A DNA stretch of 64,000 nucleotides from an uncultured Marinoscillum sp. (GCA_964351885.1 CAYGPP010000001.1:95911-159910), one strand, 5' to 3'. Positions 34,529 through 44,005 are shown, counted from the first letter of the stretch. Made by a program: numbers and translations. The notes: a model not told the origin generated them from the letters alone.

Positions 34529-34733
34529 GCGGCAAAAGTACGCTTAACGATTAATATAATTCGTGGAATATTCAACTGGTGGGTTCTTTTTGATAACCCG
34601 ACAAGTCTTTTATCATAATCAAACTAGGAAAGCTATTAAAGAGCGAGTGCCACATTATAATAGAAGATCACACGATGGCTGAACATTGATTAAAGAGGAA
34701 AGGCAAGGTGTAAAACCATAGGTTAATGATGGT

Positions 34734-35777
34734 CTAATTCAATTCTAAAATGACAACTTTATCATCCATAACAGTTCCTACAAAAACCTTTTCCTTGTGA
34801 GGAACAGCCACAGTGGATGACGATATGTTTTGACCATCGTCCACAAAGACAGACTCCAATTCATAATGGCCTTTGTCCTTATAATCGATTTTAATAATCT
34901 CAGATGGTGAGATTGGGCTATTGCCTTTGGAGTAACTAGCAAAGGTGAGCAAGTTTGGGTGGCACCCGATCCAGAGATTTCCAAGTTCATCAAACTCTAT
35001 GTTGTCCACCCCAGTGCCAGTCGGGATGTCCTCAACGAATGATAATGATTTGTCAGAATTAATCTTAAAAACTTTCAACAGGAAATTACGAGGAGAAGCA
35101 ACGAACATTAAGTTCCGTTCTTGATCGATATTGATACCATTTGCATAGGCTATGCCGGATGCAACTGCACTGTAAGTATAACCATTGAAGTAAACAATTC
35201 CCGATTTCTTAAGACCAAGATAATCCTCCAAAATGCGCATGAACCCAGGTTGGTAATGATGATCATTCGTGAAGTAAAAACTTACTGGAGAATCAGCAAT
35301 AATATCATTTGGGCTAACCAATGATTTATCCTTCAAAGTCTCTTGGTGAGTTAATGTGCCGTTATTCAATAAAAACCTCTCAATGGTATGCTTACCATCG
35401 AAATGGTTAATAACCAAAAGTTGATAGCCAGAGTCGAGTTTGAGAAGAGATATACCATGGGGATAAAACGGCTTTGCGAATTTGAAATCCAGCAGTCTTG
35501 AAGAATATGGCTGGGCAGTTAAGTCTACATAATACAGTCCACCTTGTATCGGTATTCCGTCTCTTCGAGAGGCACGATCATCTGAGGAGATAATGATAAA
35601 ATTATCACTACGACTGATAGCAATATCTTCTGCCCCGCTGATACGTAAATTCTGAATAATTTTATCCGTGTTCTTTGAAATAATTTTTCTAAAAAAGCCT
35701 CCTGAATACAAGATGTTTAGAACTAATGCCGCAAATAGTATAATGACTATGGAAAGAAAGATCAATACTTTTTTCAT
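34734..35777 (-). CDS. paraoxonase/arylesterase-like (SMP-30/gluconolactonase/strictosidine-synthase fold) protein
   Basis: N-terminal anchor, GAEDIAI...ISSDDR, and a beta-propeller-like repeat pattern resembling the PON family. Confidence 0.5.
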   Translation of the reverse strand: MKKVLIFLSIVIILFAALVLNILYSGGFFRKIISKNTDKIIQNLRISGAEDIAISRSDNFIIISSDDRASRRDGIPIQGGLYYVDLTAQPYSSRLLDFKFAKPFYPHGISLLKLDSGYQLLVINHFDGKHTIERFLLNNGTLTHQETLKDKSLVSPNDIIADSPVSFYFTNDHHYQPGFMRILEDYLGLKKSGIVYFNGYTYSAVASGIAYANGINIDQERNLMFVASPRNFLLKVFKINSDKSLSFVEDIPTGTGVDNIEFDELGNLWIGCHPNLLTFASYSKGNSPISPSEIIKIDYKDKGHYELESVFVDDGQNISSSTVAVPHKEKVFVGTVMDDKVVILELN

Positions 35778-35825
35778 ATCTCTAAATTTAGTCTGTTCTG
35801 TATTGAAAATCCCTGTTAATATTCA

Positions 35826-36326
35826 ATGACTAATCATTATCAAGACCTAGATTTACATGATAATCTAGTAATTAGCATGAGAATAGAAGAGGAAATAAGA
35901 GTAGAGGCGTTTGTCTCCGAGCGACATAAGCTTAGCACTAATTTGATATACACGCATTATTGGGCCTATGATAGATTACAGGAGTTATATGGAAAATTTG
36001 AGTTGACTCCCCAGCAGCATAATGTGTTACGAATTCTCAGAAGCGCTTTTCCTCACTCCTTTACTACTTCTCAAATTCTGGATCGAATGATGGAGAAAAA
36101 TGCTGGAGTTTCAAGAATAGTTGATCGTTTGGTAAAAAAAGAGTTGGTACTTAAGGAAGTTTCGAAAACAGACAAAAGACTTGTGGATATCACTATTTCT
36201 TACAAAGGACATGCGCTTTGTGAGCATATGGATGAAGAACGAGAACGAATAGACTCGATTTATCAAAACCTGACAGAGAACGAAACGGAGCAATTAAATA
36301 ATCTCCTAGACAAGCTTCGGGGATGA
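35826..36326 (+). CDS. MarR family transcriptional regulator
   Basis: Winged-HTH region TSQILDRMMEKNAGVSRIVDRLVKKELVLKEVSKTDKRLVDI. Confidence 0.8.
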   Translation: MTNHYQDLDLHDNLVISMRIEEEIRVEAFVSERHKLSTNLIYTHYWAYDRLQELYGKFELTPQQHNVLRILRSAFPHSFTTSQILDRMMEKNAGVSRIVDRLVKKELVLKEVSKTDKRLVDITISYKGHALCEHMDEERERIDSIYQNLTENETEQLNNLLDKLRG

Positions 36327-37291
36327 AAGCAGCTGTAACAACCAAAGCCGGACTGCCGTCGGTCATTGAAATAAGAGAGGTTTCTAAACCAATAGTCAAA
36401 GAAGGTTGGGTTCTTATCAAAGTGAAAGCTTTTGGGCTAAATCGTTCTGAGATGTTTACCAGAAAAGGAGACTCTCCAGGAGTTGAGTTTCCTAGAATCC
36501 AAGGAATTGAGTGTGCAGGGTTTGTTGAAGAAGACCCAAGTTCGACTTATAAAAAGGGACAAAAAGTCATTGCCCTTATGGGTGGAATGGGACGGTTTTT
36601 TGATGGAGGTTATGCCGAGTACACATTAGTCCCGAAAGAGGTTGTTATTCCTTTTAAGAGTGATTTGCCATGGAAAGTTGTAGGTGCTTTACCTGAGATG
36701 TTTCAAACTGTATATGGATCACTTAATCAAGCGCTTGAGATCAAGAAAGACGAAACTTTATTAATTAGAGGAGGAACATCCTCTATTGGAATGATGGCTT
36801 GCCAACTAGCCAAACATCAGGGACTTACTGTTATTTCGACTACACGAAACCCAGCTAAAGTCCAGTTTCTAAAAGAAAATGGAGCGGATCATGTTATAAT
36901 TGACAATGGGGAAATAGCGGAATTGGTTAGAAATATACTCCCTGAGGGAGTCAATAAAGTTTTGGAACTAGTAGGAACAGTAACCCTTAAGGATTCTCTT
37001 AAGTGTATCAGCAAAGGGGGTACGGTCTGTATGACTGGCATCCTTGGTAACGAGTGGACTTTGAAGGATTTCTCCCCAATGGGAGATATTCCATCATTGG
37101 GTAAATTGACGATGTATTCTGGTGAAGCATCGAATTTGACTGTTGATGCGTTGAATGAATTTCTTACCGCAGTAGAGAGTGGTGAGATTAACCCAAATAT
37201 TGATCGTGTATTTTCTTTGGATCAAATAGTAGAGGCTCATGAATACATGGAAAGCAATGCTGCAAAAGGCAAGCTCCTAGTGCTTACATAA
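36323..37291 (+). CDS. zinc-type alcohol dehydrogenase / NADPH:quinone oxidoreductase family protein
   Basis: MDR-fold N-terminus, Rossmann GGTSSIGMMACQLAK, ATGA overlap with the MarR gene. Confidence 0.85.
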   Translation: MKAAVTTKAGLPSVIEIREVSKPIVKEGWVLIKVKAFGLNRSEMFTRKGDSPGVEFPRIQGIECAGFVEEDPSSTYKKGQKVIALMGGMGRFFDGGYAEYTLVPKEVVIPFKSDLPWKVVGALPEMFQTVYGSLNQALEIKKDETLLIRGGTSSIGMMACQLAKHQGLTVISTTRNPAKVQFLKENGADHVIIDNGEIAELVRNILPEGVNKVLELVGTVTLKDSLKCISKGGTVCMTGILGNEWTLKDFSPMGDIPSLGKLTMYSGEASNLTVDALNEFLTAVESGEINPNIDRVFSLDQIVEAHEYMESNAAKGKLLVLT

Positions 37292-37384
37292 TTTTCCTTT
37301 AGGCTTTTAGTCCTGATTGGGACATTGCTGATTGTCATATTAAACCTTTAATTTGATCTGCGTTAGATCAAACTAAAAACATTG

Positions 37385-38773
37385 ATGACTGCACTAACCA
37401 CGCTCCAAGAAATCCCTGAGTTTAAGAATGTACCCAAGTCGCAGCTGCAATGGCTACTAGATGAAGGAGAAATCAAGACTTATGATACTGGAGGGCTGAT
37501 ATTTCAGCCTGGAGATTCTATTGATTCTCTCATTATTATTCTGGAAGGTCAAGCCGTAATCAAAGCAAAGCAAGGCAATCAATTTAGAAAGGTGGCCACC
37601 CTAGAGAAATATGCCATCACCGGCAATTTGCCTTATTCGAGAGCAGACAAGGCTTTTGGTTATGCTGAGGTAACTAATTCCACTACAACGCTGATGTTAC
37701 CAAAAACTAAGTTTCGAGAGATGATTGTTGATAATGTAGAGCTGACTACAGCACTAGTACATACTATGAGTAGTAGGATAAGGGATTTCACAAAGTCACA
37801 ACAACAAAATGACAAGATGATGGCGCTTGGTAAGCTTTCCGCCGGGCTCGCACATGAACTTAATAATCCATCCGCCGCAATTTTAAGAAGTGCTCAAAAC
37901 CTCGGAAAGCATTTGAAGCAGATTCCGGAAGGGTTTAAAAAGGTGATAAAAATCACGATGACAGACGAGCAAGTGGATATTGCCAATAAGATTTTGTTTG
38001 ATAAAATGTCTTCAGAGAAGCCTAAGTTGAGCATGATGGAGAAGTCATCTCTAGAAGATGAACTGCTTGATTGGTTAGAGGAGAACGAAATTGAAGATGC
38101 CGAAGAGGTTGCAGAAAACCTTGCTGCCTTTGGTTTTGACATGGACGATATGGATAAGATCGCTACTCAAGTACAGTCGAAGGATTTGCAGCCAGTCATT
38201 CATTGGTTCAACCAAATGCTTGTCACGGATAGTTTGGTTGATGAAATTAAGGATGCTTCGCAGCGAATTAATACGCTAGTCACTTCCGTGAAAAGCTATA
38301 CCCATATGGATCAGGCTCCAGAGAAAAAGGCAACTGATGTGCATATTGGACTTGACAACACCTTGGCAATGCTCAACCATAAAATCAAAAAGAATCAAAT
38401 CAAGGTTCGAAAGGAATTTGATTTCGAAATAGCTAAACCGTGCATATTGGTAAGTGAAATGAATCAAGTTTGGACGAATGTTATCGATAATGCCATTGAT
38501 GCAATGGAAGAATCAGAAACCAAGGAACTAACGATTCGAACAGTTCAGGACGGTCAGTTCGTAAATGTTTTCATAGCAGATTCAGGCTCTGGAATCCCCG
38601 AGTCTGCACAAGGAAAGGTTTTTGATCCATTCTTTACTACAAAATCAATTGGTCAAGGAACAGGTCTGGGAATGGAGGTTGTCCATCAGATTGTTACACA
38701 GCACAATGGTTCAATCACTTTTGAAACTGAGCCGGGAAAAACAGAATTCAAAATTTGCATTCCTATCAAATAA
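37385..38773 (+). CDS. cyclic-nucleotide-binding domain sensor histidine kinase
   Basis: N-terminal cNMP-binding beta-roll (aa ~20-130), H-box LSAGLAHELNNPSAA, N-box NVIDNAIDA, G1 ADSGSGI, G2 GTGLGM. ATG 37385 preferred over TTG 37382. Confidence 0.85.
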   Translation: MTALTTLQEIPEFKNVPKSQLQWLLDEGEIKTYDTGGLIFQPGDSIDSLIIILEGQAVIKAKQGNQFRKVATLEKYAITGNLPYSRADKAFGYAEVTNSTTTLMLPKTKFREMIVDNVELTTALVHTMSSRIRDFTKSQQQNDKMMALGKLSAGLAHELNNPSAAILRSAQNLGKHLKQIPEGFKKVIKITMTDEQVDIANKILFDKMSSEKPKLSMMEKSSLEDELLDWLEENEIEDAEEVAENLAAFGFDMDDMDKIATQVQSKDLQPVIHWFNQMLVTDSLVDEIKDASQRINTLVTSVKSYTHMDQAPEKKATDVHIGLDNTLAMLNHKIKKNQIKVRKEFDFEIAKPCILVSEMNQVWTNVIDNAIDAMEESETKELTIRTVQDGQFVNVFIADSGSGIPESAQGKVFDPFFTTKSIGQGTGLGMEVVHQIVTQHNGSITFETEPGKTEFKICIPIK

Positions 38774-38776
38774 GTT

Positions 38777-40438
38777 ATGAAAAAGCCAATCATATTTCTA
38801 ATCGATGATGATCCTGCTGTACTCAAAGCGGTCACCAGAGATATCAGATCGGAGTACAGAAGTAATTATAAAATACTAGCAACTGAGTCTGCTAAAGAAG
38901 GGTTAGAAGCTCTCAGAGATTTGAAGAATAAAGGCGATGTTGTGGCTCTTTTTATCTCAGACCAGAAGATGCCAGAGATGCTTGGAGTAGAGTTTTTGGA
39001 GCAAGCCAAAACATTTTACCCTGAGGCTAAAAGAATATTATTGACAGCCTACTCTGATACCGACGCTGCAATCAAAGCAATCAATGATGTGCAACTTGAT
39101 TATTATCTCATGAAGCCTTGGGATCCGCCAGAGGAGAAGCTTTATCCTGTGATCAATGATCAATTAGATGAGTGGCAGAATAATTACCGACCAGAATTCG
39201 AAGGGATAAAAATTATCGGTTTTCAATGGTCGCCAAAATCTCATCATATCAAGGATTTCCTATCCGGAAACTTGATTCCATATCAATGGCTGGATATAGA
39301 AAGTTCAGAAGAGGCAGATCAACTTACCCAAATCAATGCGATTGAGCGTGCGGATCTTCCTGTCGTATTCTTTGAAGATGGCAGCTATCTTAAGAACCCT
39401 ACGCTTACGGAAATAGGGAATAAAACAGGGATGAATGTTCAGGCGAAGCAAAAAATGTACGATGTTGCCATCATTGGTGCAGGACCAGCAGGGTTAGCAT
39501 CAGCTGTATATGGAGGATCGGAAGGGCTCAATACCTTGCTAATCGAAAAGAGAGCTCCAGGAGGACAGGCTGGAACTAGCTCGAGGATTGAGAATTATCT
39601 CGGTTTCCCAAAAGGACTTAGCGGCGCAGAATTATCTCATCGAGCAATAACTCAAGCAACTCGTTTTGGTATTGAGTTTTTATCTCCTCAAGAAGTTGAG
39701 AAACTAGAGGTGAGGGATAATTATAAGATTTTAACGCTGAAAGACGGGTCTGTTATTAACACCAAAAGTGTGATTGTCACAACGGGCGTGGACTACCGCA
39801 AGCACCCAGCGAAAGGGATAGACGATTTTACCGGTGCGGGTATCTACTATGGCGCTGCGACGACCGAAGCGGGAGCATGTAAGGGTGAAGATGTATACAT
39901 GGTAGGAGGAGGGAATAGTGCCGGTCAGGCAGCCATGTATCTTTCAAAGTTTGCCAAGAATGTATATATCGTGGTTCGCAAACCTGATTTGTCCTCTAGT
40001 ATGTCTCAATATTTGATCGACCAGATTGCTAATACGGACAATATCCATGTGCTCGGTCACACGGAGCTGGTGGAGGTTTTGGGAGAAGACAGGCTTCATT
40101 TCATTGAATTGCAAGACACTCATAGCAAAGAGGTCAAGAAGGTTCCTGCGGCAGCACTATTTATTTTCATTGGGGCAAAACCAATCACGGACTGGCTGCA
40201 ATTATCTTTATTGAAAGATCCAAGAGGCTTTTTGGAGACAGGGAACTCGTTAACCAAGTACGATAATTTCAAAAAAGTATGGAAGCTTGATCGTGAGCCA
40301 TTTTTATTGGAGACCTGTATTCCAGGAATTTTTGCTGCTGGGGATGTAAGAGCCGGCGCTATGAATCGGGTGGCATCAGCAGTGGGAGAAGGTAGCATGG
40401 CTATCAAATTTGTACATGAATATTTAGCAGAAAACTAA
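38777..40438 (+). CDS. fused response regulator (REC) / glutaredoxin-like / thioredoxin-reductase-like flavoprotein
   Basis: REC domain with DD and phospho-acceptor D62 (LFISDQKMP). FAD motif AIIGAGPAGL, NAD(P)H motif MVGGGNSAG, GIFAAGDV. Confidence 0.85.
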   Translation: MKKPIIFLIDDDPAVLKAVTRDIRSEYRSNYKILATESAKEGLEALRDLKNKGDVVALFISDQKMPEMLGVEFLEQAKTFYPEAKRILLTAYSDTDAAIKAINDVQLDYYLMKPWDPPEEKLYPVINDQLDEWQNNYRPEFEGIKIIGFQWSPKSHHIKDFLSGNLIPYQWLDIESSEEADQLTQINAIERADLPVVFFEDGSYLKNPTLTEIGNKTGMNVQAKQKMYDVAIIGAGPAGLASAVYGGSEGLNTLLIEKRAPGGQAGTSSRIENYLGFPKGLSGAELSHRAITQATRFGIEFLSPQEVEKLEVRDNYKILTLKDGSVINTKSVIVTTGVDYRKHPAKGIDDFTGAGIYYGAATTEAGACKGEDVYMVGGGNSAGQAAMYLSKFAKNVYIVVRKPDLSSSMSQYLIDQIANTDNIHVLGHTELVEVLGEDRLHFIELQDTHSKEVKKVPAAALFIFIGAKPITDWLQLSLLKDPRGFLETGNSLTKYDNFKKVWKLDREPFLLETCIPGIFAAGDVRAGAMNRVASAVGEGSMAIKFVHEYLAEN

Positions 40439-40442
40439 AATT

Positions 40443-40709
40443 ATGAGTTGCGAACACTTAGATGCCATCGGAGAAATAAAGGAGGCAAAAGCTTACGAAT
40501 GTGAGGAGTGCGTGAAGACGGGAAGCAAATGGGTTCACTTGCGTACCTGTCAAACCTGTGGCGTCACGCTCTGTTGTGATTCCTCTCCCAAGACCCATAT
40601 GACGAAGCACTATTATACCCATAGTCACCCAATAGCCTCGTCTGCAGAGCCAGGAGAATCTTGGGTATGGTGCTACGGGCATCAGCAGATTAAGAAACAG
40701 AAAATATAG
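40443..40709 (+). CDS. UBP-type zinc-finger (zf-UBP) domain protein
   Basis: CEHL...CEEC...WVHLRTCQTCGVTLCCDSSPKTHMTKHYYTHSHP is the characteristic zf-UBP Cys/His pattern. 88 aa. Confidence 0.8.
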   Translation: MSCEHLDAIGEIKEAKAYECEECVKTGSKWVHLRTCQTCGVTLCCDSSPKTHMTKHYYTHSHPIASSAEPGESWVWCYGHQQIKKQKI

Positions 40710-40782
40710 GTCAGCGATAACCCGAACGTGATATGGTCTCTTCGAGCTTCAATAGACTCATCACGCTCAGGAGGAATAAGAC

Positions 40783-42855
40783 CTACTCTACCATCAAACT
40801 CAAGGCGAATCCCCCAGCTTCTGCCATTGTGAAAGTGAGCTGATCTCCTTTGGTTATTGCTTGTTCTGTAATTGAAATAGCAGTTGGATTACCGATGTAC
40901 TTGGTTTCTTCTGTGTCTTGGTAAACCTTCGCTGTATAGGTTTTGCCTTCTTCTAAGAAATCAAAGGTCACCGTAAAGTCGCGCGAGATCTCGTCAGTGA
41001 TTCCTCCAACAAACCAGTTATCACTTCCTTTTTCCTGACGAGCAATGACTACAAAATCTCCTACCTCTCCATCTAGTACTATCGTATGCTCCCAGTCCAC
41101 TGCCACATCTCTGATAAACTGAAAAGCCGGCTGGTCTTTGTAATACTGAATCAAGTCTGCCGCCATTTGGATTGGGCTATAGATCACCACATAAAGGGCG
41201 AGCTGCTGTGCTAGTGTAGATTTGATTGGGTGATCCTCCTTGAAGGGCAACAAGCTCAAGTTGAATATCCCTGGAGTGTAATCAATCGGTCCGGCAAGCA
41301 TTCTTGTAAATGCAACTATTGGCAAGTGATCTGGTGGAGATGCTCCTCCATCTGCCCAAGCATTGTACTCCTGACCCCTTACACCTTCCCTTGATATTTC
41401 GTTGGGATAGGTTCTTCTTTTTCCGGTGGCTTTGATTGGCTCATGCATGTTGATGGCCACTTTATACTTTGCGCCATACTCTACAGTTTTTTGATAGTGA
41501 TTTACCATCCATTGTCCGTGGTGATACTCTCCATCTGGGATGACCGTACCTACATATCCTGTTTTTACCGCGTGGATACCTAGTTTTTCCATTAATTGAT
41601 AGGCAGTATCCATGCGCTCTTCATATCTTCCCACAGACCCGGAAGTTTCATGGTGCATGAATAATCCCACTCCTTTTTCTGCACCATATCTTGCCACTTC
41701 CTCGATATCATAATCTGGATATGCCGTGGTAAAATCAAAGATCGTATCACGCATGTCTGGATGAGTCCATGTTTCCCAGCCCGTATTCCACCCTTCAACT
41801 AACACTCCGCCAAGACCATTCTCAGAAGCGAAATCTATTAGCTCCTTCGTGTATTCTGTAGTAGCCGCATGCTTACCACTTGCTAAATCCCAGCTCTTGA
41901 TACCGAGATGCATATCCCACCAAATACCAAGGTATTTCACAGGTTGGAACCAATCGGAAATGTCACTAACTACATTGGGGTCGTTGAGATTAACGATCAG
42001 TTTAGACTCAATAAGGTCTCCGGCGCGGTTGGCTATTTGCACTGTTCTCCAAGGCGTATTGAATGGAGCTTCAGTTTTTACCTTGACGCCACTTTTGTTT
42101 CCGACCAGTTCGCTTACCATATTTAAGTTTTCGGTATCTACTTTAAGCGTCATTCCAGCGTAATTAGTAAGGTCAGCCTCGTGAAAGCTTAAGTAAACTC
42201 CCTCAGCCGTCTTCATAGTCACGGGGGTATTAACTGCATTTTCTGGAATGTAAACCTGACCCAAATGATCACCAGCTATGAACTTAGACTTTGCGTCAAT
42301 TTCAGAAAATGGCGTAGTGTTGTAGAGATATTCGTAGATGTCCCAATCTCCTGGAATCCACCATACCTTGTGATTGGCAGTCAGGTTAAACGCTGAGTTT
42401 TCATCCATGATCACCACCCCATTAGCGAATGCGGCTTGTTCGGGAAACTCGTACCTGAAGCCAATTCCATCATCAAACACTCTGAATACAAGATCGAAAT
42501 TCCGTTTTGGTTCCACTTGCTCTTGTAGTCTTATTCGCAGTTGATTGTAATTGTTGTCGACTAGTCTTTGCTCACCCCAAGACATTTCCCAAGTCTCCTC
42601 AAAAGAAGTTATCCCAGCTGACATTACTACAAGGTTTTCTCCTAACCGGGGTTGGTTTTCGAAATCAAAAGACAAGTAAGAAGTATCTATTTGAACCTGA
42701 TTCTTATATTTTATCAAATAAGCCGGTCTTCCATCCTGAAACAAGAAGCTGACAGATATAGAGTCATCTGGAGATTTGACATCCCAAGATTGATTTTTGG
42801 TACCGCAGCTAGCCACCAAGGCGATGACAATTAGAAATAAAGAGGCTTTTTGCAT
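40783..42855 (-). CDS. glycoside hydrolase family 97 lipoprotein (alpha-glucosidase/alpha-galactosidase type)
   Basis: Lipobox LVASCG. Size and blocks (GIWWDMH, VKTGYVG, HEPIKATGxRRTYPN, REGVRGQEYNAW) are typical of GH97. Confidence 0.85.
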   Translation of the reverse strand: MQKASLFLIVIALVASCGTKNQSWDVKSPDDSISVSFLFQDGRPAYLIKYKNQVQIDTSYLSFDFENQPRLGENLVVMSAGITSFEETWEMSWGEQRLVDNNYNQLRIRLQEQVEPKRNFDLVFRVFDDGIGFRYEFPEQAAFANGVVIMDENSAFNLTANHKVWWIPGDWDIYEYLYNTTPFSEIDAKSKFIAGDHLGQVYIPENAVNTPVTMKTAEGVYLSFHEADLTNYAGMTLKVDTENLNMVSELVGNKSGVKVKTEAPFNTPWRTVQIANRAGDLIESKLIVNLNDPNVVSDISDWFQPVKYLGIWWDMHLGIKSWDLASGKHAATTEYTKELIDFASENGLGGVLVEGWNTGWETWTHPDMRDTIFDFTTAYPDYDIEEVARYGAEKGVGLFMHHETSGSVGRYEERMDTAYQLMEKLGIHAVKTGYVGTVIPDGEYHHGQWMVNHYQKTVEYGAKYKVAINMHEPIKATGKRRTYPNEISREGVRGQEYNAWADGGASPPDHLPIVAFTRMLAGPIDYTPGIFNLSLLPFKEDHPIKSTLAQQLALYVVIYSPIQMAADLIQYYKDQPAFQFIRDVAVDWEHTIVLDGEVGDFVVIARQEKGSDNWFVGGITDEISRDFTVTFDFLEEGKTYTAKVYQDTEETKYIGNPTAISITEQAITKGDQLTFTMAEAGGFALSLMVE

Positions 42856-43153: not shown

Positions 43154-44005
43154 TTATCTGATATGATAGTCTGGAGTATTAATGGGAAAGCTCATTACTG
43201 GTACATTCACACGATTCACAATCGTTTCGGTAAGGCTGCCAACGAACGCTCTTGAGAGTCCTTTTCGGTGATGTGTTGCAATAGCTATCAGGCTATTGAG
43301 ATGTGTCTGACAATAATGCTCTAGACCTTCTTCGAAAAACAGAGCGTCAATGACCTTTACTGAACCGAGGTGATTTGAAGCGAGTGCGACGAAACTTTCC
43401 ATCCGCTCTTCAATAACCCAAGATCTTTTGAACTCTGAGGGAGTATTGATATGCAGCAAGTGAATCTTGGCTCCAATTTGTTCTGCAAAACTTACCACAT
43501 GCTCAAAAGGAGGAATCATTTCATCGCGAAAATCTGAAACGAACAGGACATCAGGAGCGTCTAAATATTCAACTTTGTTCTTGATTACCAATACTGGGAT
43601 TTCAGAGTTCCTCACCACGAATTGTGCGTTGGTTCCAATGAATAATTCTTTGGCTCCCTTAGCGCCGTGCGATCCCATGACAATTAGGCTAATGGCTTTT
43701 TCATTGGCGTATTTGGTAATGGCTTCTTTAGAGTTATCATAGTTTAGATGCGTAACGCAAGTCAACCCTTCTAGCTCAACTTTCTTGGCTAGCTCCTGAA
43801 GCTGTTGGTTTACCTGATCTTTCTGCTCAGACAACTTTGGGAACACCAAGTTTTGAGAGAAGTCGAGATGAGCCCAATCAATTGGAACGTTGAGCGCATG
43901 ATACAAGTGCAATTCGGAATCAAACTTCCTCCCAAGCTTGATAGCTACGTTTAAAGCATGTTCGGCACACTCCGAAAAATCTGTGGGGACAAGGATATTT
44001 TTCAT
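43154..44005 (-). CDS. universal stress protein (tandem Usp domains)
   Basis: MKNILVPTDFS... and G(S)HG motifs in both halves. Confidence 0.85.
   Translation of the reverse strand: MKNILVPTDFSECAEHALNVAIKLGRKFDSELHLYHALNVPIDWAHLDFSQNLVFPKLSEQKDQVNQQLQELAKKVELEGLTCVTHLNYDNSKEAITKYANEKAISLIVMGSHGAKGAKELFIGTNAQFVVRNSEIPVLVIKNKVEYLDAPDVLFVSDFRDEMIPPFEHVVSFAEQIGAKIHLLHINTPSEFKRSWVIEERMESFVALASNHLGSVKVIDALFFEEGLEHYCQTHLNSLIAIATHHRKGLSRAFVGSLTETIVNRVNVPVMSFPINTPDYHIR

Follow-up and report, generated by a model that had tools for sequence, protein, structure and literature searches.

We analyzed a 64,000-nucleotide stretch of DNA (the window) from an uncultured Marinoscillum sp. (GCA_964351885.1 CAYGPP010000001.1:95911-159910), and found at 37385-40709 three genes that very probably constitute a functional, conserved module. 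The genes encode a histidine kinase with a cyclic-nucleotide-binding (CNB) domain (CNB-kinase or HK, gene 1), a flavoprotein with a receiver (REC) domain (FLV, gene 2), and a zinc-finger protein of the ZnF-UBP family, also called zf-UBP (ZF, gene 3). Our data indicate that HK and FLV are a cognate pair to which ZF is an accessory. Furthermore, FLV appears to be a flavoenzyme with the shape of AhpF and thioredoxin reductase (TrxR) from which the redox cysteines of both have been lost. The best explanation of these data is one operon encoding a conserved signaling and redox module, in which HK acts on FLV and ZF is a partner; we regard this explanation as probable. The parts of the module are as follows.

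37385..38773, + strand: kinase gene (HK), 462 aa, supported by the ORF listing, Pfam, and NCBIfam
37475..37729, + strand: CNB domain of HK, aa 31-115, with a non-canonical phosphate-binding cassette
38777..40438, + strand: flavoprotein gene (FLV), 553 aa; REC, a Cys-less thioredoxin/glutaredoxin (Trx/Grx) fold, and a Cys-less TrxR-like FAD/NAD(P)H module
38792..39130, + strand: REC domain of FLV, aa 6-118; Response_reg 57.4 bits, model pLDDT approximately 85-93
39206..39424, + strand: Trx/Grx-fold domain of FLV, aa 144-216; S152-P-K-S155 replaces CxxC
39458..40435, + strand: TrxR-like two-dinucleotide-binding module of FLV, aa 228-553; GAGPAG, GGGNSAGQ, and GD motif intact
Y357-Y358-G-A-A-T-T-E364 of FLV, + strand: former TrxR CxxC region, redox-active CxxC replaced
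40443..40709, + strand: zinc-finger gene (ZF), 88 aa, a stand-alone three-zinc ZnF-UBP

The genes lie on the same strand with spacers of 3 nt between HK and FLV (GTT) and 4 nt between FLV and ZF (AATT), and form the tight unit that an earlier note on this DNA had described. The ORF listing places the kinase start at a TTG at 37382, and the ATG at 37385 is the next codon. No exact match to the Bacteroidota promoter consensus TAnnTTTG occurs within 34541-41216, hence there is no internal consensus promoter. Given the 3- and 4-nt gaps, the shared strand, and the lack of an internal TAnnTTTG, we infer that the three genes are co-transcribed as one operon. The nearest relatives of all three proteins belong to Marinoscillum sp. 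(Cytophagales) and share 81-86% identity with them.

Conservation of the module across genomes

Two sets of loci were compared. In set 1 (phmmer and clustering), ZF served as the anchor for 80 genome loci of different species; in set 2, FLV was the anchor for 80 metagenome loci, of which 79 were used for the kinase count and 47 had enough flanking sequence for ZF to be evaluated. In set 1, the order seen in the window (CNB-kinase, REC-FLV, ZF) was found at 33 of 80 loci, from Cytophagales, Sphingobacteriales, and Chitinophagales. At 11 loci ZF adjoins an FLV that has no REC domain, and in 10 of these a CNB domain is fused in its place. FLV is present at 44 of the 80 ZF loci, which agrees with the statement in the earlier note that small zf-UBP genes stand beside TrxR-like genes fused to REC or cyclic nucleotide monophosphate (cNMP) binding domains in other bacteria. 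In set 2, a kinase gene is adjacent to FLV at 64 of 79 loci; both orders occur, mostly FLV then kinase, and named relatives of the latter form are Acidobacteriota (Terracidiphilus, Terriglobia).

Gene orders that include ZF are HK-FLV-ZF, FLV-HK-ZF, ZF-FLV-HK, ZF-CNB-FLV, and CNB-FLV-ZF, and the gaps are usually below 20 nt across Bacteroidota, Acidobacteriota, and Thermoanaerobaculia. Acidobacterial loci are arranged as FLV-CNB-kinase-ZF-EgtB-EgtD, as FLV-kinase-ZF followed by a universal stress protein (Usp) gene, or as FLV-kinase-Usp. Since the same module recurs in many genomes, the linkage of the three genes is not due to chance. These data suggest that the CNB-kinase and REC-FLV form a conserved, near-obligate core and that ZF is a frequent accessory whose presence would be independent of gene order. 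Thus the three-gene linkage claimed in the earlier note is conserved, while an obligate place for ZF is not supported, since only 12 of the 47 evaluable FLV loci carry it.

A one-component form of the module also exists. Zobellia, Winogradskyella, and Flagellimonas have ZF followed by CNB-FLV, and a Thermoanaerobaculia metagenome-assembled genome (MAG) has the reverse order, CNB-FLV followed by ZF. The CNB domain of the window kinase and the FLV-fused CNB domain of Winogradskyella share 27% identity (pairwise E 1e-10). The two versions of the CNB domain are thus related, and the domain can be coupled to FLV through a direct fusion or through a phosphorelay.

Other recurrent neighbors were considered as parts of the module and rejected because they are lineage-local: SDR, DoxX, ChaN, HEAT/DUF4097, LuxR-type, MFS, aldehyde dehydrogenase, CoA_binding_2, and glyoxalase genes. 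At six FLV-then-kinase loci (L109, L115, L121, L122, L125, L149), a protein of approximately 220 aa with a C-terminal LuxR/GerE helix-turn-helix is encoded divergently just upstream of FLV; in that lineage it could supply the system with a DNA-binding branch. One Cytophagales MAG (L063), counted here as an intact module, has its kinase, FLV, egtB, and egtD genes each split into several short ORFs, which looks like frameshift-rich assembly error rather than pseudogenization.

The flavoprotein has lost its redox cysteines

FLV matches Response_reg and, over aa 228-539, Pyr_redox_2 (112.9 bits). The REC domain has the residues of a receiver (D10, D11, D62, T90, and K113), all of which are invariant in close relatives, and D62 (38960-38962) is the predicted phospho-acceptor. 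The closest receivers are of the RpfG/HD-GYP type and the NtrC type. With REC fused to a Pyr_redox_2 module, the output of this two-component pair is, as the earlier note held, a flavoprotein and not a DNA-binding domain.

The second domain of FLV has a weak mycoredoxin match (TIGR02200, 32 bits) and aligns with mycoredoxin-1 (PDB 2LQO, E 1.9e-4). In the AF2 model, aa 144-216 form a confident beta-alpha-beta-alpha-beta-beta-alpha Trx fold (pLDDT 85-92), so that the predicted fold is that of glutaredoxin and mycoredoxin. WSPKS stands at the position of WCGYC in mycoredoxin-1, and the domain has neither the CxxC nor the CxxS of glutaredoxins. We surveyed the cysteines of 113 FLV family members drawn from the two independent locus sets. 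S152 is found in 107 of the 113 and S155 in 81, and neither position is ever Cys. The motif at aa 149-158 (window 39221-39250), F-Q-W-S-P-K-S-H-H-I, aligns weakly (E approximately 1) with G-F-W-P-S-P-F-S-H-R-I in the N-domains of 7dwf and 7dwd, which are glutathione S-transferases (GSTs) whose N-domains bind glutathione. The match is not significant and is a lead only that the Cys-less domain may bind a small thiol.

The best sequence match of FLV in the PDB is the TrxR of Bacillus cereus (7aaw, E 7e-44), whose CAVC aligns with G-A-A-T-T, and the best Foldseek match of the whole-chain model is AhpF (4o5q, E 9e-29). The corresponding NCBIfam models score below their cut-offs: 227.5 bits against 343 for TIGR01292, the best NCBIfam match, and 156 bits against 503 for TIGR03140 (AhpF). 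Among the 113 relatives, the FAD and NADPH motifs of TrxR are kept, GAGPAG and GGGNSAGQ being conserved in at least 97%, and the GD motif, Y357-Y358 (invariant), and E364 are conserved at 92-100%. Cys does not exceed 64% in any alignment column, and the former CxxC positions are never Cys. Identity among FLV proteins of different Bacteroidota families is 72-85% at a fixed length of approximately 553 aa, which indicates strong purifying selection.

Overall, FLV has the AhpF/TrxR shape and still looks fit for binding FAD and NAD(P)H. With substitutions in both CxxC motifs and no conserved Cys among the 113 relatives, FLV is no disulfide reductase, and its sequence excludes thiol-disulfide chemistry by FLV itself. 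The folds that the earlier note assigned to gene 2 (REC, glutaredoxin-like, TrxR-like) are therefore retained, and the redox chemistry that such names imply is not. The database name of the family, 'thioredoxin reductase (NADPH)', is in our judgment from these alignments wrong and misleading.

The kinase has a CNB fold with an altered ligand cassette

HK matches cNMP_binding (33.0 bits, cut-off 27.5, aa 31-115) and HATPase_c (75.3 bits), in line with its earlier description as a CNB domain fused to HisKA/HATPase. Its HisKA match (21.5 bits) is below the cut-off and covers only profile positions 2-31 of 66, because approximately 120 conserved residues (window 37922-38284, kinase aa ~180-300, consensus ...WLExHGV..AW.LAP.L...) are inserted between the H-box helix and the remainder of the dimerization domain. 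The H-box histidine is H157, in AHELNNP. Residues invariant in 48 partner kinases are H157, E158, N161, P162, N365/N369, D399-G401-G403, F416, and G423-G425-G427. HK thus has the H-box and the N, G1, F, and G2 boxes of a two-component histidine kinase.

The CNB fold is well supported, as the PF00027 match exceeds its gathering score and 47 of 48 complete partner kinases also match cNMP_binding. Compared with PKA RII-alpha, the cassette Glu of the window kinase is replaced by Asn and the Arg by Ala, so that the canonical Gly-Glu...Arg-Ser/Thr-Ala cassette is missing. Most partner kinases carry a distinct conserved motif, vTGxLP[FY]SR, in place of the canonical cassette, and a minority (L117, L162) have a canonical GE..PR.A cassette. 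CNB/CAP-fold domains also bind ligands other than cyclic nucleotides, as in CooA, CprK, and PrfA. The cNMP-sensing kinase of the earlier note therefore keeps its fold and loses its canonical cassette, and since the Glu and Arg are missing, sensing of cAMP or cGMP by the window kinase is putative. Our analysis shows a kinase predicted to be soluble, with the CNB-fold domain as its only sensor.

The zinc-finger protein is a ZnF-UBP without the ubiquitin-binding pair

Gene 3 encodes an 88-aa UBP-type zinc finger, as previously noted (zf-UBP, 36.9 bits, cut-off 22.7). Searched against the PDB, a profile built from 13 bacterial homologues matches 2IDA (RPA1320, E 6.6e-31) and the ZnF of HDAC6 (E 2.8e-5), and the AF2 model of ZF has a TM score of 0.71 to 2IDA (45% identity) and 0.63 to the HDAC6 ZnF. 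Foldseek matches of the model are 2IDA, HDAC6, USP5, USP49, and USP16, all with the ZnF-UBP fold. Twelve Cys/His positions are invariant or nearly so (C3, H5, C20, C23, H32, C36, C39, C44/C45, H52, H56, H62, and C77); these are predicted to form three zinc sites with the spacing of HDAC6.

ZF keeps the aromatic pocket residues W30, W76, and Y78, which match those of HDAC6. R1155 and Y1156 of HDAC6, which like R221 of USP5 bind the C-terminal carboxylate of ubiquitin, align with S47 and S48 of ZF, directly after an invariant D46; the carboxylate-binding pair is missing. No conserved C-terminal tail was found on FLV or HK, and loci with and without ZF are alike in this. No Ubl, E1, E2, or JAB-type gene was seen among recurrent or Pfam-annotated neighbors, a survey that included no dedicated scan for these families. 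These data suggest that ZF is a true ZnF-UBP and no obvious reader of ubiquitin tails, which leaves the analogy with eukaryotic Gly-Gly binding offered in the earlier note weak.

ZF in other contexts. An exhaustive ZF profile search returned 2,736 representative clusters at E up to 0.001. The bacterial type of ZF is found as a C-terminal domain on Na+/H+ exchanger, TrkA-N/TrkA-C (RCK), MFS, and LPG-synthase-TM proteins; the long ZF-bearing members are the following.

P0369, P0380, P0383, P0325, P0375, P0362, P0351: long ZF-bearing proteins

DUF5996 adjoins ZF in 7 of the 36 FLV-less ZF loci of set 1, and one ZF of Fimbriimonadaceae follows DUF5996. A search for solved structural relatives of DUF5996 found none. 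One Chitinophagaceae MAG encodes a DUF5996-ZF fusion of 402 aa (L046:6047-7255), and ZF also stands beside DUF5996 with no FLV neighbor at L026, L054, L068, L070, L079, L081, and L004-L006. The range of partners suggests that ZF may be a portable cytosolic sensor or adaptor module, and the fusions would fit a regulatory or redox-sensing role better than a role as an electron carrier.

Ergothioneine genes are recurrent neighbors of the module

In set 1, egtB and egtD come next on the same strand at 15 of the 33 HK-FLV-ZF loci and at 0 of the 47 other ZF loci, for which the Fisher probability is approximately 2e-7 (a hand calculation from counts of phylogenetically clustered loci). The egtB products score 520-535 bits on TIGR03440, above its cut-off, and the egtD products match PF10017/TIGR03438.

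L017, L024, L031, L033, L039, L042, L043, L050, L056, L063, L084: egtB-egtD downstream of ZF
L052, L061, L062, L077: egtB-egtD upstream of the kinase gene

The downstream arrangement is found in Spirosoma, Nibrella, a Hymenobacteraceae MAG, and a Chitinophagaceae MAG. In four Dyadobacter species egtB-egtD lie upstream of the kinase gene and are preceded by a fused betaine-type ABC permease/substrate-binding protein, whose architecture presumably resembles that of the ergothioneine importer EgtU. The link recurs with other gene orders in the metagenome set (L094, L096, L120, L136) and beside the module at L170 and L171, including the acidobacterial order FLV-HK-ZF-EgtB-EgtD. The acidobacterial loci encode another, OvoA-like subtype of sulfoxide synthase, and this points to independent recruitment. 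Six further 'EgtB' matches were discarded since the query had an over-extended N-terminus that overlapped ZF in another frame. Literature searches returned no publication that ties ergothioneine to the module, and none on a bacterial ergothioneine reductase.

Proposed mechanism and alternative explanations

We hypothesize that a small-molecule ligand binds the CNB domain of HK and sets kinase activity; given the non-canonical phosphate-binding cassette, this ligand need not be cAMP or cGMP. HK would phosphorylate D62 of FLV, and the ensuing change in REC dimerization would cause the dimeric flavoenzyme to change its conformation or its activity. A CNB domain fused in place of REC, as in Flavobacteriaceae and some other lineages, would have the same effect in one step. 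In the flavoenzyme, NAD(P)H would reduce FAD by hydride transfer, and the electrons would pass on to an acceptor other than a disulfide. ZF would be the protein partner of FLV, acting as a zinc-thiolate redox or ligand sensor or as an adaptor rather than as a reader of ubiquitin tails, and it could plausibly dock on the Trx-fold domain of FLV, where the cysteines are gone and the cis-Pro loop is retained. As a complete chain from ligand through HK, D62, and flavoenzyme to acceptor, this proposal is tentative, and we would sooner expect some step to need revision than the whole to stand. The physiological field is most likely low-molecular-weight thiol or oxidative-stress homeostasis, since egtB-egtD are recurrent neighbors; in lineages with the egtBD linkage, the best candidate is ergothioneine.

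Several observations weigh against the signaling and redox module as we describe it. ZF is absent from about three quarters of the evaluable FLV loci (35 of 47), and 36 of 80 ZF genes have no FLV nearby, so that the core does not need ZF in order to function. Certain genomes of Flagellimonas/Allomuricauda (L014, L020, L028, and L036, compared with L019, L021, L029, and L060) retain ZF in the neighborhood seen in their relatives and lack the CNB-FLV gene that follows it there, which indicates that ZF is able to persist when no flavoprotein is adjacent. The FLV model is only moderate in its flavin-binding parts (pLDDT 72.8). Public-run and literature searches yielded no biochemical or transcript record for any member of the module. 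Regarding the ergothioneine link, egtB and egtD are absent from the 64-kb window and from most FLV loci, from which it follows that the module is not restricted to ergothioneine producers. Furthermore, the 15 egt-positive Bacteroidota loci come from few related families, so that independent events are few, approximately 4-5 arrangements in 2 phyla.

The alternative that fares best, which we nonetheless consider unlikely, is that FLV, alone or with ZF, is a regulated NAD(P)H-dependent reductase of oxidized ergothioneine (the disulfide or a sulfenic acid, including the sulfenic intermediate of the C-S lyase step), and that the CNB kinase senses ergothioneine or redox state. The adjacency of egtB-egtD in several gene orders and two phyla favors it, together with the ABC fusion upstream in Dyadobacter; the W-S-P-x-S-H motif, with its resemblance to Ser-type GST N-domains (E approximately 1), adds no more than a lead. 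The C-S lyase step catalyzed by EgtE leaves ergothioneine sulfenic acid, a documented intermediate that needs reduction (PMC4493562), and a 2018 review, as far as consulted, names no dedicated microbial ergothioneine reductase (PMC5790434); on these two grounds, a reductase role for FLV is conceivable. However, the window and the majority of module loci lack nearby egt genes, the reduction of a disulfide or sulfenate by flavin alone with no enzyme thiol would be unusual, and co-regulation under oxidative stress would also explain the adjacency.

Alternatively, FLV might act like other CxxC-free enzymes of the TrxR fold, either as an NAD(P)H oxidase subject to regulation or as a reductase of the quinone, metal, or ferredoxin type, with the zinc-thiolate clusters of ZF as its redox target or read-out (a zinc redox switch). 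This accords with intact NAD(P)H and FAD motifs in a protein whose CxxC is gone, with the 8 invariant Cys of ZF, and with the fusion of ZF to Kef-like or TrkA/RCK and Na+/H+ exchanger proteins. Relatives of these proteins, such as KefC, are gated by thiol or electrophile status. FLV nonetheless matches TrxR/AhpF at E 1e-44, far better than the TrxR-type ferredoxin-NADP reductases, for which E is 1e-19 or weaker. A redox-labile zinc is unsupported; all 12 ZF ligands align with structural sites of HDAC6. On balance we rate this alternative slightly behind the ergothioneine reductase.

It is improbable, in our view, that ZF has no functional relation to the HK-FLV pair and is merely a frequent neighbor, such that the real unit has two genes. 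The counts of loci where one occurs without the other (35 of 47 and 36 of 80) speak for this, as do the other partners of ZF such as DUF5996 and transporters. In a neighbor-joining tree of ZF, a very short protein, FLV-linked and unlinked members are interspersed and form no separate paralogue clades. Against this, adjacency recurs in at least five gene orders, in one- and two-component forms, in Bacteroidota, Acidobacteriota, and Thermoanaerobaculia, and usually with gaps below 20 nt, which is hard to explain unless co-expression has been selected.

A bolder version of the redox module is of the same low order of probability, and we offer it as speculation. The module might be a redox system that is gated by a signal and devoted to ergothioneine or to some other thiol of low molecular weight. 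In it, the Cys-less AhpF-like enzyme would regenerate or mature ergothioneine by reducing the sulfenic or disulfide forms, through flavin chemistry with no enzyme thiol, and ZF would be a small-molecule or redox sensor, not a reader of peptide tails, that also gates the K+/Na+ transporters to which it is fused. The pocket of W30, W76, and Y78 with the invariant D46 would suit a trimethylammonium or thiol ligand. If this were true, FLV would be the first bacterial ergothioneine-recycling enzyme, and ZF would reveal an ancestral function of the ubiquitin-binding zinc finger.

Two further readings are very improbable. A cAMP/cGMP-controlled Trx/Grx-type disulfide reductase, with FLV reducing ZF or thioredoxin by dithiol exchange, follows the database name and the best NCBIfam match of FLV and is contradicted by the sub-threshold TIGR01292 score, by the replacement of both CxxC motifs with no conserved Cys in 113 relatives, and by the cassette Glu and Arg absent from HK. 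Likewise, the idea that ZF reads the free C-terminal Gly-Gly of some ubiquitin-like protein in bacteria, as eukaryotic ZnF-UBP domains do with ubiquitin, has the common fold and the aromatic pocket in its favor, while Ser-Ser beside an invariant Asp replaces the Arg-Tyr pair, the C-termini of FLV and HK have no conserved tail, and the annotated neighbors, which were not scanned specifically for these families, include no Ubl, E1, E2, or JAB-type gene.

Transcription signals and flanking genes

Two candidate signals flank the module.

37349..37356, + strand: promoter-like -7 box, near-match TTAATTTG to TAnnTTTG, approximately 30 nt 5' of the kinase start
40721..40771, strand unassigned: imperfect hairpin between ZF and a GH97 gene, within their 73-nt spacer; 12-nt arms, 83% complementary

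The block TTAATTTGA is kept upstream of the kinase gene in a Marinoscillum orthologous locus (L009), where the near-match TTAATTTG is conserved, and we infer that the latter is a promoter. A scan for sigma-70 promoters and terminators gave counts at chance level. A 13-nt inverted repeat shortly before the kinase start codon, at 37347-37377 (TTTAATTTGATCT / AGATCAAACTAAA), which has a 5-nt spacer and overlaps TTAATTTG, was considered as an operator and rejected for want of conservation in Marinoscillum, since L009 does not keep its right arm. Downstream, the GH97 gene is convergent with ZF, 73 nt away. The hairpin between them folds at -21.5 kcal/mol with a z score of only -1.7, and is a possible weak bidirectional terminator. 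The region is contained in four public runs, all DNA from a biofilm metagenome, with no RNA run among them.

Upstream of the kinase gene lie a MarR-family regulator gene (35826-36326) and, sharing 4 nt with it, a zinc-type alcohol dehydrogenase/quinone-oxidoreductase-like gene (36323-37291) that ends 90 nt before the kinase gene. In L009 the two are missing from the interval that separates the arylesterase gene from the kinase gene, and they therefore lie outside the conserved module. A tandem Usp gene (43154-44005, - strand) is found two genes downstream of the module, as in a second Marinoscillum locus (L007), and in three Acidobacteriota loci (L172-L174) a Usp gene directly follows the module; this recurrence is perhaps coincidence. 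The window has no tRNA or Rfam match and no paralogue of FLV or ZF.

Significance and comparison with known systems

The module is among the most conserved uncharacterized signaling modules that we have met in Bacteroidota and Acidobacteriota (72-85% identity at fixed length), and at its center is a flavoenzyme that appears to have discarded the chemistry for which its fold is known. Solving it would define a new class of response-regulator output and would show a role of the ZnF-UBP fold before ubiquitin. The egtB-egtD neighborhood provides a concrete, testable handle and bears on how bacteria keep ergothioneine reduced. The name 'thioredoxin reductase (NADPH)' should not be propagated for the FLV family.

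Like FLV, AhpF and low-molecular-weight TrxR have a TrxR-like FAD/NAD(P)H module, preceded in AhpF by an N-terminal Trx fold. In AhpF and TrxR the electrons are carried by CxxC centers, whereas FLV is without both. AhpF also has a tandem pair of Trx folds, whereas FLV has one Trx fold and an added REC domain, and FLV lacks the CxxC that marks AhpF. The TrxR-type ferredoxin-NADP+ reductases (YumC of B. subtilis and the FNR of Chlorobaculum) share with FLV a TrxR fold devoid of CxxC. They match FLV more weakly than TrxR does (E 1e-13 to 1e-19 versus 1e-44), and FLV has the extra Trx-fold and REC domains. In CheB, PleD/WspR, and RpfG, as is proposed for FLV, REC controls a fused enzyme rather than DNA binding. 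To our knowledge, there is no experimentally characterized example of a pyridine-nucleotide flavoenzyme as the output of a response regulator.

RPA1320 of Rhodopseudomonas palustris (2IDA, a structural-genomics NMR structure) is, like ZF, a stand-alone bacterial ZnF-UBP; its PDB entry is titled 'hypothetical protein' and gives the fold only. The ZnF-UBP domains of HDAC6, USP5/IsoT, USP16, USP49, and USP39 have the fold in common with ZF, and HDAC6 also shares the three-zinc ligand pattern and the Trp/Tyr pocket. Eukaryotic ZnF-UBP domains have an Arg-Tyr carboxylate pair, whereas ZF has Ser-Ser beside an invariant Asp, stands alone at 88 aa, and has no ubiquitin system among its annotated neighbors.

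The closest precedent is a prediction. Burroughs, Iyer, and Aravind (Mol Biosyst 2011; 7:2261) reportedly proposed, from gene context and with no experiment, that bacterial ZF-UBP takes part in a novel cyclic-nucleotide-dependent redox signaling system. The conserved neighborhood that reportedly marks this system, in which ZF-UBP stands with a CNB domain and a flavoprotein of the TrxR-like kind, is present in the window; in the reported system as in the module, a stand-alone ZF-UBP gene lies beside cNMP-binding and TrxR-like genes, and the role proposed for it is other than ubiquitin binding. The statement in the earlier note that no function has been assigned thus holds for experiments, as far as our searches show, and gives way to this reported prediction. 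Our literature searches on bacterial ZF-UBP with cNMP, redox, or RPA1320 found nothing relevant. On this basis, the module in the window would be a further case of a computationally predicted and experimentally uncharacterized system. As far as our searches show, the present analysis adds to it the family-wide loss of redox cysteines, the non-canonical cassette, a quantified structure of core and accessory genes, the apparent equivalence of one- and two-component forms, the fusions of ZF to ion transporters and DUF5996, and the linkage to egtB-egtD.

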